Positions 1,722 through 18,564 of a DNA stretch of 44,309 bases are shown piece by piece. The DNA comes from a virus. Taxonomy: Duplodnaviria; Heunggongvirae; Uroviricota; Caudoviricetes. The notes below the pieces were generated by a model. That model was not told the DNA's origin and searched no databases. It worked only from the letters and a program-made list of their open reading frames with translations. Numbering within the stretch: the stretch's first letter is position 1; each line of letters begins with the position of its first letter. The stretch lies in the IMG/VR virus record IMGVR_UViG_2684622542_000005. One strand, written 5' to 3'. Both the position numbers and the translations under genes were made by a program.

Positions 1722-3809
1722 ATGTTTGCTTCAGTTAAAGAACTGGTTGGATTACCGGGGATGCCGGGAACGGAGCAAGGCGTTCGCTATTCAATCAGGA
1801 AGTATGCAACCAGCGAAACCAGCAGACGCCGCAAGAAAGGCGCTAAAGGTTTTGAATACAGCATTGACTGTTTACCTGAAGTGACACAGCAGGCATTACG
1901 CGAACGTTATGCCCTGCAACTGATGACGCAAAAAGCCGATGAATCACCGGCTCCGGTGGTGACAAAGGCCAGACGCTCGTCTGCCGTGGTTGATGCGGTG
2001 GAGGCATATCGCGGATCACCACAACTGATGGTCGAACGCCTCAATGCCCTGACTGAAAACCAGCGCCAGGTGGCAGACGCACGCATTGCGATCGTCAGTG
2101 AGGTGCTGAAATTCACGCAACAACCCGGTTTCAGCTGCGCTAAAGCTATCCGGTTCCTCGTTAACAGCCTGGCACGATCACAACTGGACGAGCGCATTGT
2201 GGCAATGGTTGAGACGGCGAACGCCAAAAAGGGAAACAGCCGCGCGTTGAGTGAAATCACGCTGAAACGCTGGATTGCGGCCTTTAACAAGGCACAGAAC
2301 GCCGCTGAACGCCTGCTTTTACTGGCACCGGGTAAACGCCAGGAAATAAAAGCCGAAGATATTAACTGGCTGCCCGAATTTCTGGCGCAGTATCGCCAGT
2401 CAAACGGCCGACCAATGACCGAGGCTTACGAGGATTTTGTTGCTGAATGGCAGCACCGGCACGCTGATGAGCCTTATATGCTCGATATCATGCCCTCTTA
2501 TGACACCATTCGCCGCGCAATGAAGAAACTGCCGGAAGTGGTGAAACAAAAAGGCCGGGTAACTGGCAGTGAATACCGTCAGCTTGAGGGATTCACGCGC
2601 CGCGACTGGTCCAGAATGCCGGTGAATTATGTCTGGATTGGTGACGGTCACGGCATGAAGCTGAAATGCGCGCACCCGGTTCACGGGCGGCCATTCGCAC
2701 CGGAAGTGACCTTTGTTATCGACGGTGGCACGCGCTTTGTGGTGGGCTGGAGCCTTGACCTGGCTGAAAATGTTTTCGCCGTAGCCGGTGCCATACAGCA
2801 CGGTATTCGCCATCATGGCAAACCGTTTCTGTATTACTCGGATAATGGCTCCGGGGAAACCGCCGACGTCCTGGATAAGGAGATTGTGGGGATACTGCCA
2901 CGACTGGGGATTAATCACCCGACAGGGATTGCCGGTAATCCGCAGGGACGGGGCATTATCGAACGGCTTAACCGCACATTACCGATGCGCATAGCCCGTA
3001 AATACCGCACCTATTTCGGGAAAGGAGCAGATCGCGAGACGTTACGTAAAACCAACCGCGATTTACGCTCGGCATTCAGTGCCCTGCAACAGGGCAAACG
3101 GCTGAACGCCCGGCAGCAGTCAGCGATGCGTGATTTACCGTCCTGGTCTGAACTGATTGATGCCATTCGTGACGGTGTTGAGTGGTACAACAACCGGCCG
3201 CACGATGAATTACCCATGAAGCCGAACGGTAAACATTACAGCCCGGCGGAGTTCAGAAAAAAACGCCTGGCGGAAGAGGACACGGAAATTGAATGGCTGT
3301 CCGATGTTGAACTGCGGGATATGTTCCGGCCGATGGTGGAGCGCCCTGTAAGACGCTGTGAAATACGCTGGCTGAATAATATTTACTACGCGCCCGAGCT
3401 GCGTGACGAGCATGGCCGTAAGGTACTTATCAGCTATGACATTCATGATGCCGAACGAATTACCGTGCGCCGCCCGGATGGCAGCGTGATTTGCGAGGCG
3501 GTATGGGACGGCAATAAACGCGAAGCCTTCCCTGTCAGCGCGGAATACTACAAACAGCAGCAGCGCCTTAAAGGCATGCGTAAACGCGCAGAGGAAAAAA
3601 TCCGTGATGCCGAGGATGAGGTTGTCAACGTGCTGGAGCACAAGCCGCAGGAGCCCTGGCTGGAAAACATATACCGCCCTGTGGGTAATACGGTGACCGT
3701 TCAGCAACCGGTCGCTGACGATGAACCTGATGAAGAATACGAGCGTAATTTCCAGCGGGGATTGCAACTGCTCGAAGCGAAATTAAAAGAAAGTGATCCG
3801 CTGGCCTGA
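1722..3809 (+). CDS. Mu-type DDE transposase (MuA-like)
   Basis: 695 aa, follows ner, precedes an AAA+ ATPase; size and position match MuA. Confidence 0.9.
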   Translation: MFASVKELVGLPGMPGTEQGVRYSIRKYATSETSRRRKKGAKGFEYSIDCLPEVTQQALRERYALQLMTQKADESPAPVVTKARRSSAVVDAVEAYRGSPQLMVERLNALTENQRQVADARIAIVSEVLKFTQQPGFSCAKAIRFLVNSLARSQLDERIVAMVETANAKKGNSRALSEITLKRWIAAFNKAQNAAERLLLLAPGKRQEIKAEDINWLPEFLAQYRQSNGRPMTEAYEDFVAEWQHRHADEPYMLDIMPSYDTIRRAMKKLPEVVKQKGRVTGSEYRQLEGFTRRDWSRMPVNYVWIGDGHGMKLKCAHPVHGRPFAPEVTFVIDGGTRFVVGWSLDLAENVFAVAGAIQHGIRHHGKPFLYYSDNGSGETADVLDKEIVGILPRLGINHPTGIAGNPQGRGIIERLNRTLPMRIARKYRTYFGKGADRETLRKTNRDLRSAFSALQQGKRLNARQQSAMRDLPSWSELIDAIRDGVEWYNNRPHDELPMKPNGKHYSPAEFRKKRLAEEDTEIEWLSDVELRDMFRPMVERPVRRCEIRWLNNIYYAPELRDEHGRKVLISYDIHDAERITVRRPDGSVICEAVWDGNKREAFPVSAEYYKQQQRLKGMRKRAEEKIRDAEDEVVNVLEHKPQEPWLENIYRPVGNTVTVQQPVADDEPDEEYERNFQRGLQLLEAKLKESDPLA

Positions 3810-15065: not shown

Positions 15066-16654
15066 TGGGACGCATCATTGATACTGACGGAAAACCTTTC
15101 TCCTTTGACCCGGAGATGCAGAGTGCCGCGCTGGATATTCCGCAGATTGCCAGCCGTTATATTGAACATCCGGCTTCGGGTATCACCCCGAACCGGGCGG
15201 CGCAGTGCCTTCGCGGGGCTGAACGTGGCGATCTGATTGCCCAGTCCGATCTGGCCGCTGATATTGAAGAAAAGGACACCCACCTTTTTGCGGAGCTGGG
15301 CAAGCGACGTCTTGCCATTCAGGGGGTGCCATGGAGTATTGAGCCGCCACCGAACGCCAGCGCGAATGAGAAAAAGGACGCGGAAATGCTCGACGAATAT
15401 CTGCATTCCGCAGACTGGTTTGATGCCATGCTGTTTGACGCCACGGATGCCATCCTGAAGGGCTATTCCTGCATGGAAATTGAGCACGGGATGCTCGGTA
15501 AAATGCACATCATCCGCGCCATCCGCTGGCGTGACAGCGGGCATTTCTGCCTTAACCCGGATGATTTGAGCGAACTGCGGCTGCGTGACGGCAGCCATGC
15601 CGGGGTGGCGTTTCAGCCCTTTGGCTGGATAGTGCATCAGTCGCGTTCACGCACCGGCTACGGTGGTGCGACGGGGCTTGTCAGAACGCTTATCTGGCCG
15701 TTCATTTTCAAAAACTATTCCGTGCGCGATCTGGCGGAATTTCTGGAGGTGTACGGCCTGCCAATGAAGGTCGGGAAATACCCGTCCGGGGCAACACCGG
15801 AGCAGAAAAGTGCCCTGATGCGGGCGGTGATGGATATCGGGCGACGTACAGGCGGGATCATCCCGGCCGGGATGTCGCTGGAGTTTCAGGCGGCAGCGAA
15901 CGGTCAGGCCGATCCGTTTGAAACCATGATTTCGTGGGGTGAGCGTTCCATCTCCAAAGCAATACTCGGCGGCACGCTGACCACAGAAGCCGGAGACAAA
16001 GGCGCGCGCTCGCTGGGTGAGGTGCATAACGAGGTGCGCCGGGAAATCAGGGATTCTGATTTACGCCAGCTGGCTGCAACCCTGAACCGCGATCTGGTGT
16101 ATCCGCTGTATGCCCTGAACACCGCCCACGCCATTGATATCCGTCGCCTGCCGCGTATCTGTTTCCAGACCAAAGAACCGGGGGATATCACCAAAATAGC
16201 CAGTGCGGTGATGCAACTCAGTGCGGGGATGGATATTCCTGATCCCTGGGTACGGGATCAGACCGGTATTCCACAGCCCACGCCCGGTGAAGCCATATTC
16301 CGTGTCCGTCAGAGCAGTAATGAACCGGCCATGCCTGACAGGGAAACGCTACCGGAAAAACAGGAAAAGACAGAACAGACGGCGCTTTCAGCCCGACTGC
16401 CGGAAGCGAAAAACACGCCGCGTGATGAACTGGACGACATGGGGGACGCGGTGCCTGCCCGCCGCTTACAGGAGGCCATCGATCCGGTGCTGGAGCCGGT
16501 CATTGATGTCATCAGAACGCGGGGGCTGGCGGAGGCACTGGCAGACCTGCCTGCCCTTTACCGTGAAATGGATGATTCCCGCCTGATGACGCTGCTCAGT
16601 GATGCCATGTTTGCTGCGGAAATGAAGGGGATGCTGGATGGCTCAGGGGATTGA
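15065..16654 (+). CDS. Portal protein (Mu gp29-like)
   Basis: 529 aa between terminase and head morphogenesis genes; GTG start overlaps the terminase stop. Confidence 0.85.
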   Translation: MGRIIDTDGKPFSFDPEMQSAALDIPQIASRYIEHPASGITPNRAAQCLRGAERGDLIAQSDLAADIEEKDTHLFAELGKRRLAIQGVPWSIEPPPNASANEKKDAEMLDEYLHSADWFDAMLFDATDAILKGYSCMEIEHGMLGKMHIIRAIRWRDSGHFCLNPDDLSELRLRDGSHAGVAFQPFGWIVHQSRSRTGYGGATGLVRTLIWPFIFKNYSVRDLAEFLEVYGLPMKVGKYPSGATPEQKSALMRAVMDIGRRTGGIIPAGMSLEFQAAANGQADPFETMISWGERSISKAILGGTLTTEAGDKGARSLGEVHNEVRREIRDSDLRQLAATLNRDLVYPLYALNTAHAIDIRRLPRICFQTKEPGDITKIASAVMQLSAGMDIPDPWVRDQTGIPQPTPGEAIFRVRQSSNEPAMPDRETLPEKQEKTEQTALSARLPEAKNTPRDELDDMGDAVPARRLQEAIDPVLEPVIDVIRTRGLAEALADLPALYREMDDSRLMTLLSDAMFAAEMKGMLDGSGD

Positions 16655-17969
16655 TTTAGGTTATGCCGCCACGCTTCCCTCAAAAGAGACGGTGGCATAC
16701 TTCCGCGCCAAAGGGGCGCATATCAGCTGGAACTGGTTCGAAACAGACGCGGATGTTCATGCCCGCTCATTCACGGCAGCAAAAACGGCACGGCTGGATG
16801 TGGTAACCACATTACAGGCCGAAGTGCAGCGGGCCATTGATGAGGGGATTTCACAGAAAGAATTTATCCGCACACTGACGCCACGCCTGCAAAAGCTGGG
16901 ATGGTGGGGAAAGCAGATTGTGGTGGACAGCGACGGTAACGCGGAAGAAGTGCAGCAGGGCAGTCCCCGTCGTCTGGCGCTGATTTACAACGTGAACACC
17001 CGTGTGGCTTACAATGCCGGGCGTTACACGCAGATGATGAACAACACGGACACGCATCCGTTCTGGCAGTATGTGGCGGTCATGGACAGCCGTACCCGCC
17101 CGTCGCATTCCGCCCTTAACGGTCTGGTATTCCGCTATGACGATCCGTTCTGGAAAACACACTACCCGCCCAATGGCTGGAACTGCCGCTGCCGTGTGCG
17201 GCCATTGTCTCAGGCCCGTCTGGATGCAATGGGGTTATCCGTTTCATCCGGTGAGGATCATCTCTCCACCCGCAATGTTGAGGCTGGCGTGGATAAACAG
17301 ACCGGAGAAGTCAGAGAAATGCCGGTGACCACATATTCAGATGGCGCCAGAACCATGACACCGGATGTGGGCTGGTCATATAACCCCGGCTCGGCAGCGT
17401 TCGGCACAGACCAGGCGCTGATCCGCAAACTGATCGAGGTGAAAAGCCCGGCGTTACGGGAAATGGTGGTTCAGGAGATGAACAACAGCCCGGAGCGGCA
17501 GCTGGCGTTCCGCATCTGGGCAAAAAACATCATGCAGACCCGGCGAGGTGGTAACGATATCCGCACGCTGGGCTTTATGACTGAAAGCATTGCGCAGGCA
17601 GTGGAAAGCCGGACGGGAACGCCACCGGCCCGCCTGCTGGCGATGAGCGGTAAAAATGTGCTCCATGCGGACAGTGTGAAACATCAGAATGACGGCATCG
17701 CTCTGACGCCGGAGGACTTCGGGCGCTTACCGGCAATGCTGGCAAGGCCAAAAGCGGTACTGTGGGACAAACGGCACAACAATCTGATGTATATCGTGGA
17801 AAATCAGGATGGCAGTGTGCAGATTGCCGTTAATGCACCGTACAGTCTGAAACGTCAGCCCGACAAACTGGATGTGATTGTGAATGCTTACCGGGTTATC
17901 AATATGGATAAGCTGAAATCGGATATCCGGGGCGGAATGCTTGAGGTGCTGGAAGGACAAATTGATTAA
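16638..17969 (+). CDS. Head morphogenesis protein (Mu F-like)
   Basis: 443 aa with HPFWQYVAVMDSRTRPSHSALNGLVF...NGWNCRCRV core. Confidence 0.85.
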   Translation: MAQGIDLGYAATLPSKETVAYFRAKGAHISWNWFETDADVHARSFTAAKTARLDVVTTLQAEVQRAIDEGISQKEFIRTLTPRLQKLGWWGKQIVVDSDGNAEEVQQGSPRRLALIYNVNTRVAYNAGRYTQMMNNTDTHPFWQYVAVMDSRTRPSHSALNGLVFRYDDPFWKTHYPPNGWNCRCRVRPLSQARLDAMGLSVSSGEDHLSTRNVEAGVDKQTGEVREMPVTTYSDGARTMTPDVGWSYNPGSAAFGTDQALIRKLIEVKSPALREMVVQEMNNSPERQLAFRIWAKNIMQTRRGGNDIRTLGFMTESIAQAVESRTGTPPARLLAMSGKNVLHADSVKHQNDGIALTPEDFGRLPAMLARPKAVLWDKRHNNLMYIVENQDGSVQIAVNAPYSLKRQPDKLDVIVNAYRVINMDKLKSDIRGGMLEVLEGQID

Positions 17970-17971
17970 CG

Positions 17972-18056
17972 GTCAGTGGCGGGGGTCGAACCCGCATACA
18001 TGATCCACCCGGAGGCAGGCACCGACTTTACCAGTTAAGCGTACACTGACCGCCTG
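17972..18056 (-). other. tRNA-like structured element (acceptor stem plus T-arm, no canonical anticodon arm)
   Basis: Minus strand reads GTCAGTG-TA-...-GCGGG-TTCGACC-CCCGC-CACTGAC-C: a 7-bp acceptor-like stem and a T-arm with TTCGA loop; anticodon stem could not be folded by eye. Confidence 0.3.
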
Positions 18057-18090
18057 TTTATTTTATATTCATCCTTTATGCGGAGGCAAT

Positions 18091-18564
18091 ATGTCATCCA
18101 TTGATGCAGCTGTCGTTGTTGACGTTACGCGTCTCCAGCGAGTGTTTGCCCGGCTTCAGTTTGTGGGCGGCGGAAAAGACCTGGCCCGCAGTGTGGCGGC
18201 GAGTCTTCTGTCATCGTCAGAAATGGCGTTTGAGCAGGAAAAAGAGCCGGATGGTGAACGCTGGCATGACTGGTCAGATCCTTACCGTGAGTGGCGTACC
18301 CGTAAGGGATACACGCCCGGCAAAATCCTGACGCTGAACGGCGATCTGGCCCGCCGCCTGACCACGGATTATGGCGATACCTGGGCGCTGATTGGATCAA
18401 ATGAACCTTATGCAGCCATTCATCAGTGGGGTGGCCTGCCTGGTATGCCACCGGGACCGGCGGCCATTGGCGCACGTCCGTATATGGGCTTTGATCAGGT
18501 GGCAGAACAGGAGATCATGGACGAAATCAGAAAACGCTTTAAAAAGGCCACAGAAACGCCGTAA
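18091..18564 (+). CDS. Virion morphogenesis protein (Mu G-like)
   Basis: 157 aa, between F-like and protease genes as in Mu. Confidence 0.75.
   Translation: MSSIDAAVVVDVTRLQRVFARLQFVGGGKDLARSVAASLLSSSEMAFEQEKEPDGERWHDWSDPYREWRTRKGYTPGKILTLNGDLARRLTTDYGDTWALIGSNEPYAAIHQWGGLPGMPPGPAAIGARPYMGFDQVAEQEIMDEIRKRFKKATETP

Follow-up and report, generated by a model that had tools for sequence, protein, structure and literature searches.

The 44,309-nucleotide (nt) stretch of viral DNA analyzed here (IMG/VR virus record IMGVR_UViG_2684622542_000005; Duplodnaviria; Heunggongvirae; Uroviricota; Caudoviricetes), hereafter the window, is a Mu-like prophage in which every late gene lies on the plus strand. 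In the 121-nt spacer between its F-like head morphogenesis gene (16638-17969, plus strand) and its G-like virion morphogenesis gene (18091-18564, plus strand), we found an 81-nt gene on the minus strand (17971-18051) for an RNA in the shape of a transfer RNA (tRNA). The RNA belongs to a family that is new and well supported; its members, found in Mu-like phages and in related islands, have the shape of a tRNA but no anticodon. Very probably the element is a functional, non-decoding tRNA-like RNA gene. The whole explanation that we favor, with a probability of roughly 0.6, is that of a working tRNA-shaped, non-decoding small-RNA gene, carried as an independent cassette, of which the product has both ends buried and acts in trans as a tRNA mimic.

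Read on the minus strand from 18051 to 17971, and numbered as a tRNA from -1 to 73, the RNA begins with G-GUCAGUG-UAC-GCUU-AACUGGUA-AAGU-CG and continues with [GUG CCUGCC UCCG GGGUG GAU CAU]-GUAU-GCGGG-UUCGACC-CCCGC-CACUGAC-C. The 5' strand of the closing, acceptor-like stem (18044-18051, minus) consists of G(-1) and GUCAGUG, and the 3' strand (17971-17978, minus) of CACUGAC and C73. GUCAGUG (18050-18044) pairs perfectly with CACUGAC (17978-17972), and C73 at 17971 has G(-1) at 18051 as its partner. GUU follows C73, and CCA is absent. Positions 74-76 (17970-17968), which overlap the F stop codon (17967-17969, one base from the 3' end of the RNA), are able to pair with positions -2 to -4 (18052-18054). 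U8, A9 and one extra C precede the D arm (18025-18040, minus; placed by cmscan alignment), the loop of which carries G18 and G19. A variable arm (18000-18022, minus) replaces the anticodon arm; in the window this third arm is an irregular hairpin of about 8 base pairs (bp), with 3 bp at its base, an internal loop, and 5 bp, two of them wobble pairs, in its upper stem, and is closed by a UCCG tetraloop at 18010-18013. A 4-nt variable loop, GUAU (17996-17999, minus), then leads into the T arm (17979-17995, minus). An earlier note on this DNA, made from the letters alone, had described the 7-bp acceptor-like stem and the T arm exactly as they stand in the sequence. The same note could fold neither a canonical D arm nor an anticodon arm; this was right for the anticodon arm, where the UCCG hairpin stands instead, and wrong for the D arm, of which a near-canonical form is present at 18040-18025.

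Detection of the element by standard programs depended on the settings. With permissive filters, the Rfam tRNA model (RF00005) gave a match of 31.0 bits within 17900-18130, where 29 is the gathering score; the E-value was 6e-5 in this 231-nt search, which becomes about 0.01 when scaled to the whole window. The alignment spanned the full model and placed 24 nt where the model has an 18-nt stretch covering the anticodon arm. With default filters Rfam gave no match in the window, and ARAGORN called none of the elements in the window and 25 family loci. Some of the other members scored 31.8, 37.3 and 35.9 bits with RF00005, and others 26.9 or less. No Rfam family besides tRNA matched the window element or the family loci searched. 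Thermodynamic folding, also suggested, was uninformative by itself (z-score -0.8). The identical sequence is labeled tRNA-OTHER in RefSeq genomes of Escherichia coli (E. coli) by the annotation pipeline of the National Center for Biotechnology Information; together with the RF00005 score, this label agrees with the earlier description of a tRNA-like, minus-strand element between the F-like and G-like genes. The element was found in 173 of 5426 complete E. coli genomes, 127 records being at least 99% identical. One copy in a genomic island bears the RefSeq label tRNA-Tyr, which looks like a mis-call. Full-text literature searches found no description of this tRNA-shaped RNA, and phage SfMu was reported to have no tRNA genes. 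The family is apparently undescribed, and annotation pipelines apparently know it solely as tRNA-OTHER.

Pattern scans of viral, metagenome and genome collections, together with a scan of relatives of the G protein, yielded 49 distinct members of the family. As a scan of one genome per species detected the strict pattern in Citrobacter braakii only, the breadth of the family rests mostly on viral and metagenome contigs. A covariance model (R1) was built from 23 members (alignment A1); the window element scored 91.8 bits against it, and members outside the training set were found at the same genomic position with E-values of 1e-7 to 1e-18. In an alignment of 30 sequences, 93.7% of the cells in paired positions were paired, and compensatory double changes occurred in 15 of the 20 pairs, which is the conservation of paired positions in related phages that the earlier note had proposed to look for. 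On none of five pairing measures was the observed value matched by any of 500 shuffles, and pairing fell to 42-57% in controls with slid partners. Compensatory changes were detected in 7 of 8 pairs of the closing stem, the -1:73 pair included, in 3 of 4 pairs of the D stem, in all three basal pairs of the third arm, and in 2 of 5 pairs of the T stem, which is 98% paired and has two further pairs of invariant G-C. All four helices are thus supported by covariation. Among the family pairs read on the minus strand, G-U pairs numbered 43 and A-C combinations 2, indicating that the minus strand is the RNA strand and that a structure of the late messenger RNA (mRNA) is not the object of selection.

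The invariant single-stranded positions of alignment A1 include those that build the elbow of a tRNA, namely U8, A14, A15, G18, G19, A21, U48, U54, U55 and C56. G57 is invariant as well in these 23 sequences. The 10:25 pair is G-U or mismatched, one extra nucleotide follows position 9, and the group L125-L130 has a 5-bp D stem (CGAAU/AUUCG). Among the E. coli copies with the same arm type as the window, termed type A, polymorphisms within the RNA were confined to the T loop: G57A (L073, 1245-1325) and A58C, which is the common O157:H7 variant (L005, 12632-12712) and is not labeled tRNA-OTHER by RefSeq. A58 is normally conserved in tRNAs.

The sequence of the RNA is kept far more strictly than that of its surroundings. 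A 56-nt core was 70-98% identical to the window copy, as compared with 23-49% identity, that is, saturation, at the fourfold-degenerate sites of F and G. In L006 and L017 the RNA differs from the window copy by 2-3 bases, including U/C in the tetraloop, despite saturated flanks and a different promoter spacer. Core identity against saturated flanking sites points to strong purifying selection.

The third arm does not present an anticodon. Its terminal loop is of 4 nt in 30 of the 49 members, of 3 nt in 10, of 5-6 nt in 4 and of 10-18 nt in 5, and a 7-nt loop is found in none. The tetraloops include UCCG, UUCG, UCAA, GUAA, GCAA and others, with UCCG or UUCG in close relatives, and the size of the arm ranges from 4 bp in L085, with a GUAA loop, to at least 11 bp with internal loops in L061 and L084. 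An encoded CCA is absent from all members. Position 73 is paired with position -1, and this pair covaries (GC 13, UA 7, AU 3, GU 2 and UG 1). The closing helix is longer in many members, with three additional pairs in the window and 6-7 in L063 (GAGAGA/UCUCUC) and L037. A conserved identity for aminoacylation was considered and rejected: G3:U70 was not found, and the -1:73 pair is G:C, U:A, A:U or G-U depending on the lineage. The RNA cannot decode, and we do not file it as a tRNA, since the defining feature of the anticodon loop fails.

A sigma-70-type promoter was predicted immediately upstream of the gene, with the -35 hexamer TTGCCT (18084-18089, minus) and the -10 hexamer TAAAAT (18060-18065, minus) separated by an 18-nt spacer. 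This hit of the promoter scan (TTGCCT-18-TAAAAT, 18089-18060), as a single one in 700 nt, was not significant by itself. Its conservation is the stronger indication: of 36 distinct upstream regions, 35 had a TANNNT hexamer at 4-14 nt from the element, as compared with 27% in shuffles, and a TTGnnn hexamer was usually present 17-18 nt above this conserved -10 hexamer. An E. coli variant, 97% identical over a 135-nt query, retains both hexamers and the RNA unchanged, and its changes are confined to the promoter spacer, to the stretch that separates -10 from the RNA, and to bases just downstream of the latter. The element begins 5 to 13 nt after -10, a spacing that follows the closing stem in length; the base of the stem therefore always lies about 3-7 nt after -10, at the expected start. 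The predicted promoter, being conserved, places the start at the base of the closing stem; in the window the putative start and a short extension of the closing stem would correspond to 18052-18054 (minus). We infer from this arrangement a leaderless transcript with a paired 5' end. The -35 hexamer overlaps, on the opposite strand, the Shine-Dalgarno sequence of G (GGAGG, 18082-18086).

Phage Mu has no such RNA gene, as the earlier note had said of tRNA at this place, and its F and G genes overlap by 4 nt. Among 80 diverse G loci of Mu-like phages, the gap between F and G was bimodal, being either 11 nt or less or 85-340 nt in the 70 for which it was computed. Of the 80 loci, 28 had the element, in every case on the strand opposite to G and just upstream of it, and this antisense position was kept where F is only 43-45% identical to that of the window (L061 and L064) and in an AT-rich host (L085). 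Morons, the independent accessory cassettes of phages, are inserted between genes that are adjacent in relatives and have a promoter and a terminator of their own; the element is an insertion of this kind and carries a predicted, conserved promoter. The scan found no terminator in the window, although in L085 the closing stem runs straight into seven U. A distant Mu-like phage (L131, 828-1134) has three tandem tRNA-like units in a 340-nt F-G gap, one of which scored 33 bits against the tRNA-Sec model, under the threshold of 47 for that family. Structured antisense inserts unrelated to this RNA occupy the same slot in L152 and L170 (about 1099-1200) and in L157, L147, L137, L151 and L156; the insert of L152 and L170 has, on the minus strand, a -10-like hexamer, a structure of about 75 nt and a clear terminator. 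None of these unrelated inserts matched Rfam. It would seem that genes for antisense small RNAs have repeatedly come to occupy the F-G junction of Mu-like phages.

Comparison with other prophages gave some further observations on this locus. In blocks, the window (about 507-39183) had 78-99% identity with a prophage that lies within a fimbrial usher gene of E. coli FORC_069 (L056), a strain with the identical RNA element; the flanks of the two prophages differ, and the window copy is thus inserted elsewhere, in keeping with a transposable phage. In E. coli OkiPb01711 (L066, 6091-7067), a prophage copy is cut inside the tRNA-like gene by IS3-family and IS30 insertion sequence (IS) elements, and keeps only the half with the D arm, the promoter and G. 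Use of the element as an integration site of satellites was considered and rejected, the one truncated copy found (H54) being an IS3/IS30 rearrangement and not an integrase junction.

The RNA was also found away from the F-G junction. In E. coli JNEC-KY179, an 8-kilobase (kb) island at the tRNA-Ile gene ileX contains two tRNA-like genes just inside the island end. Its order is integrase, a hypothetical gene, a helix-turn-helix regulator, an ash-family pseudogene, two Icd-like genes, a hypothetical gene, DUF4222, a RepA-family helicase, SSB, PerC, Mor and the two same-strand tRNA-like genes. Related metagenome contigs have two or three copies in tandem; such island arrays are present in L003 (2996-3195, minus), L043, L046, L050 and L052, and in 14 of the 5426 E. 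coli genomes. The island and the window phage share only Mor (about 48% over about 100 aligned amino acids) and this RNA, and Mu-like phages may have the ileX island as a satellite. In L003 (about 3240-3330, minus), in the stretch from Mor to the first tRNA-like gene, GTGAAA-type direct repeats lie by the island end (gtgaaagaag gtgaaagaag gtgattttt gtgaaatta ... gtgaaatcag gtgaaataa), which could be iterons or an array of binding sites. A third context was observed in L059, L063 and L065, where the RNA lies beside a gene for DUF2971, a candidate defense family of PADLOC (PDC-S31); in L065 (1-8306) the tRNA-like gene is located 216 nt upstream of the DUF2971 gene. At 3-4 kb from the RNA in this context are genes for Mor, for a Mu-type capsid protein and for a 786-amino-acid ATPase. 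The ATPase is of the AAA_13 type, has a CPFC motif, and gave a full-length match to PDC-S06 with an E-value of 2e-180. The presence of the RNA in the island and in this third context argues for action in trans.

These observations suggest the following picture. Transcription would start at the base of the closing stem, leaving both RNA ends buried in a helix, and the RNA would receive no amino acid and would not serve on the ribosome. The gene would be a moron-like cassette inserted between F and G and expressed mainly from the prophage, since it runs antisense to the late operon from a promoter of the sigma-70 type. The product may then be a stable tRNA mimic, recognized in trans through its elbow and upper half by a tRNA-binding factor, while cassette-like exchange of the arm would give lineage specificity. 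We consider the chances of such mimicry in trans to be evenly balanced. RNase P, the enzymes that modify T and D loops, and tRNA-directed toxins or defense nucleases are candidate partners. The most plausible arena would be the conflict between phage, host and satellite, where the RNA might be, for instance, a decoy for a tRNA-targeting enzyme. That it is a decoy in a defense or counter-defense system is offered tentatively, the odds being against it. Somewhat more doubtful is the specific form of this idea, in which leaderless decoys with buried ends engage a tRNA-directed nuclease, toxin or RNase P by the elbow, the arm provides specificity, and the island arrays cover several phage lineages.

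Several observations weigh against the cassette and mimic explanation. The antisense F-G position is constant across deep divergence, which could mean a role tied to position, and other Mu-like lineages have unrelated antisense inserts at this junction. What is said of the promoter, the start site and the 3' end is prediction, and the promoter and terminator scan found no terminator after the gene in the window. In the island arrays the promoter is present before the first copy only, and the later copies have a U run in front, U at -1 and A73, thereby resembling ordinary substrates of RNase P; the picture of two paired ends may fail for some copies, and the processing of arrays may differ by context. 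The T loop of the common O157 variant carries A58C, and the minimal arms of some members, such as the 4-bp arm of L085, weaken the idea that the arm confers specificity.

The main rival is a role in cis at the F-G junction, in which an antisense RNA or a convergent promoter over the ribosome-binding site of G would control the late F-G message, either through cleavage by RNase III of the duplex with the intergenic late mRNA or through transcriptional interference in lysogens. Three features fit such control: the position and antisense orientation, constant in Mu-like phages down to 43% F identity; the overlap of the -35 hexamer with the Shine-Dalgarno sequence of G; and the unrelated antisense inserts in the same slot of other lineages, some of which show a clear terminator as well as a -10 hexamer. 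However, the only sequence to which the RNA is complementary is the intergenic stretch made by its own insertion, F and G overlapping where it is absent, and between its arm and the 3' end of F no complementarity of a specific kind was seen. Moreover, antisense pairing needs no conserved nucleotides for tRNA tertiary contacts, and the copies in islands and of the L065 type lie on the same strand as their neighbors, where no F-G message is present. We consider a role in cis unlikely.

The third arm behaves as an exchangeable module. L002, L028 and L040 are about 95% identical to the window elsewhere and only 63-75% identical across 17701-18100. This divergent block of about 400 nt, which has sharp edges and comprises the last approximately 270 nt of F, the RNA and the promoter, is a recombination block. 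The three phages carry different arms, the types being named A (that of the window), B and C; distant phages nonetheless share the arm of the window. In the island arrays each arm type is represented by one copy, L052 having B, C and A. The last 12-20 residues of F co-segregate with the arm type across F backbones (L042 as compared with L014 and L016), which may be hitch-hiking of adjacent sequence, and L013 and L021, of which the F tails are similar, differ in their arms. Three ideas on the arm were considered and rejected. For pairing with the variable 3' end of F mRNA, cognate combinations were no better than non-cognate ones. For the long arm loops, only matches of 9-11 nt, at chance level, were found in their own loci. 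For mimicry of CRISPR repeats, p was 0.30 for the window arm and 0.03-0.04 at best, nominal and uncorrected, in 4 of 21 arms, which loses significance once multiple testing is allowed for.

The exchange of arms leads to a second rival, in which the tRNA-like core is a stabilizing scaffold and the variable hairpin is the payload, acting as an aptamer or decoy for an RNA-binding protein, for example as a mimic of a CRISPR repeat. The architecture is that of engineered tRNA scaffolds, in which an insert replaces the anticodon arm. Arm types are exchangeable, the island arrays hold one of each, and within a type the arm is kept while flanking synonymous sites are saturated. One island arm and the type I-F repeat also have GCC(U)GUACAGGC in common. 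Against a payload stand the weak likeness of the arms to CRISPR repeats, the very small arms and generic tetraloops of several members, and the long arm loops without a nearby complementary target beyond chance. This rival appears to us decidedly unlikely.

Of the three possibilities that the earlier note had offered, a degenerate tRNA or tRNA-derived remnant, an unusual tRNA, and a structured RNA, the last is the one that fits. A decaying tRNA gene or functionless tRNA-derived remnant might be suspected from the failure of ARAGORN and default Rfam to call the element, from the non-canonical anticodon arm and from the T-loop variants A58C and G57A in E. coli. Purifying selection, as judged against the flanking fourfold-degenerate sites, rules out a remnant on our reading, and the covarying helices, the promoter conserved in nearly all upstream regions, the retention of the same site where F is only 43% identical and the duplication in arrays point in the same direction. 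The remnant is largely refuted by selection and compensatory changes, and is highly improbable.

A decoding tRNA with an aberrant or intron-bearing anticodon arm, such as a suppressor or frameshifting tRNA, is scarcely credible. The tRNA-Tyr call on one island copy and the Rfam tRNA score above threshold are in its favor, but a 5-bp stem with a 7-nt loop occurs in none of the 49 members, the loops, mostly of 3-4 nt and including UNCG and GNRA types, are unable to present an anticodon, and the arm sequence is not conserved across the family. CCA is not encoded, the discriminator position 73 is paired, and the inserts are far shorter than a bacterial group I intron. Least credible of all is a functional plus strand, that is, a late-mRNA structure between F and G serving as a processing site, attenuator or terminator, for although the reverse complement folds a long closing stem followed by the T-rich GCCTGTTTATTTTATATT (18052-18069), the G-U pairs of the minus strand would turn into A-C mismatches, the fold z-score is only -0.39, the scan found no terminator-like site, and the T-loop and D-loop consensus is correct on the minus strand only.

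If it is made and active, the RNA would be a natural tRNA mimic without anticodon and CCA tail, with its elbow under strong selection, and a natural counterpart of the engineered tRNA scaffold. It would point to a tRNA-recognizing partner that is of consequence for transposable phages of a large branch and for the small islands that may parasitize them. More than 100 RefSeq E. coli genomes, including those of Shiga-toxin-producing strains, label the element tRNA-OTHER without explanation. With its unusually good covariation, the family is a clean candidate for a new Rfam entry.

Among known RNAs, tRNA itself is the closest in both sequence and fold. The phage RNA shares with canonical tRNA (RF00005) the 7-bp acceptor stem, the 5-bp T stem with a loop of the UUCGA type, the 4-nt variable loop, G18 and G19 in the D arm, and the nucleotides of the tertiary contacts U8:A14 and A15:U48. 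It differs in having no anticodon stem-loop and no encoded CCA, in the pairing of position 73 with -1, and in its predicted leaderless transcript. In the tRNA-like domain of transfer-messenger RNA (tmRNA), likewise, an acceptor stem and a T arm are present without an anticodon arm, and Mu biology depends on the tRNA function of tmRNA. However, tmRNA has G3:U70, a CCA end, a reading frame for the tag, and pseudoknots, whereas the 3:70 pair of the phage RNA is nearly always C-G or U-A, with one U-G. No tmRNA was called by ARAGORN, and Rfam gave for it only a 16.5-bit chance match in an island spacer.

Small, stable, non-coding phage RNAs with tRNA-like features are known, including the C4 RNA of P1 and P7, the CI RNA of P4, both antisense RNAs, the M3 RNA of phi80, and the species 1 and 2 RNAs of T4. 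Their folds are recognized by tRNA-processing enzymes, and some of them act in immunity. In C4 and CI, of which the 5' end is made by RNase P, exposed loops pair with targets; in contrast, the loops of the present RNA are mostly closed tetraloops, no complementary target beyond chance was found for the long loops in their own loci, and no match to these RNAs was found in Rfam. Engineered tRNA scaffolds keep the acceptor, D and T arms and have the anticodon arm swapped, but they are man-made and processed to normal tRNA ends, while the ends of the phage RNA appear paired and unprocessed in our model. A regulatory, non-decoding role is known for the pseudo-tRNA tRNA-Other of Bacillus cereus. Two other kinds of phage-related RNA were considered and rejected: an RNA anti-CRISPR consisting of a solitary repeat unit, on the p of 0.30 for the window arm against CRISPR repeats; and a type III toxin-antitoxin array, as the island arrays end at the island end with no gene after them and the window has a single copy.

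The remaining comparison is with bacterial Y RNAs. These have a Ro60-binding stem and motif and a gene next to that of Ro60 (rsr). Ro60 was not among the annotated neighbors in three annotated E. coli contexts, although no screen was aimed at it, and the Y-RNA families gave no match in the Rfam searches at E-values up to 10. The YrlA RNA of Salmonella is circularly permuted relative to the phage RNA, with the order of the arms reversed and with a closed hairpin as acceptor stem (PMC4201824). In Yrn1 of Deinococcus, the ends form a closing stem, and a hairpin with a loop of other than 7 nt is located between the D and T arms, at the position of the anticodon arm (PMC4201824). The topology of the phage RNA is that of this tRNA-like module of Yrn1, which is its closest counterpart in topology.

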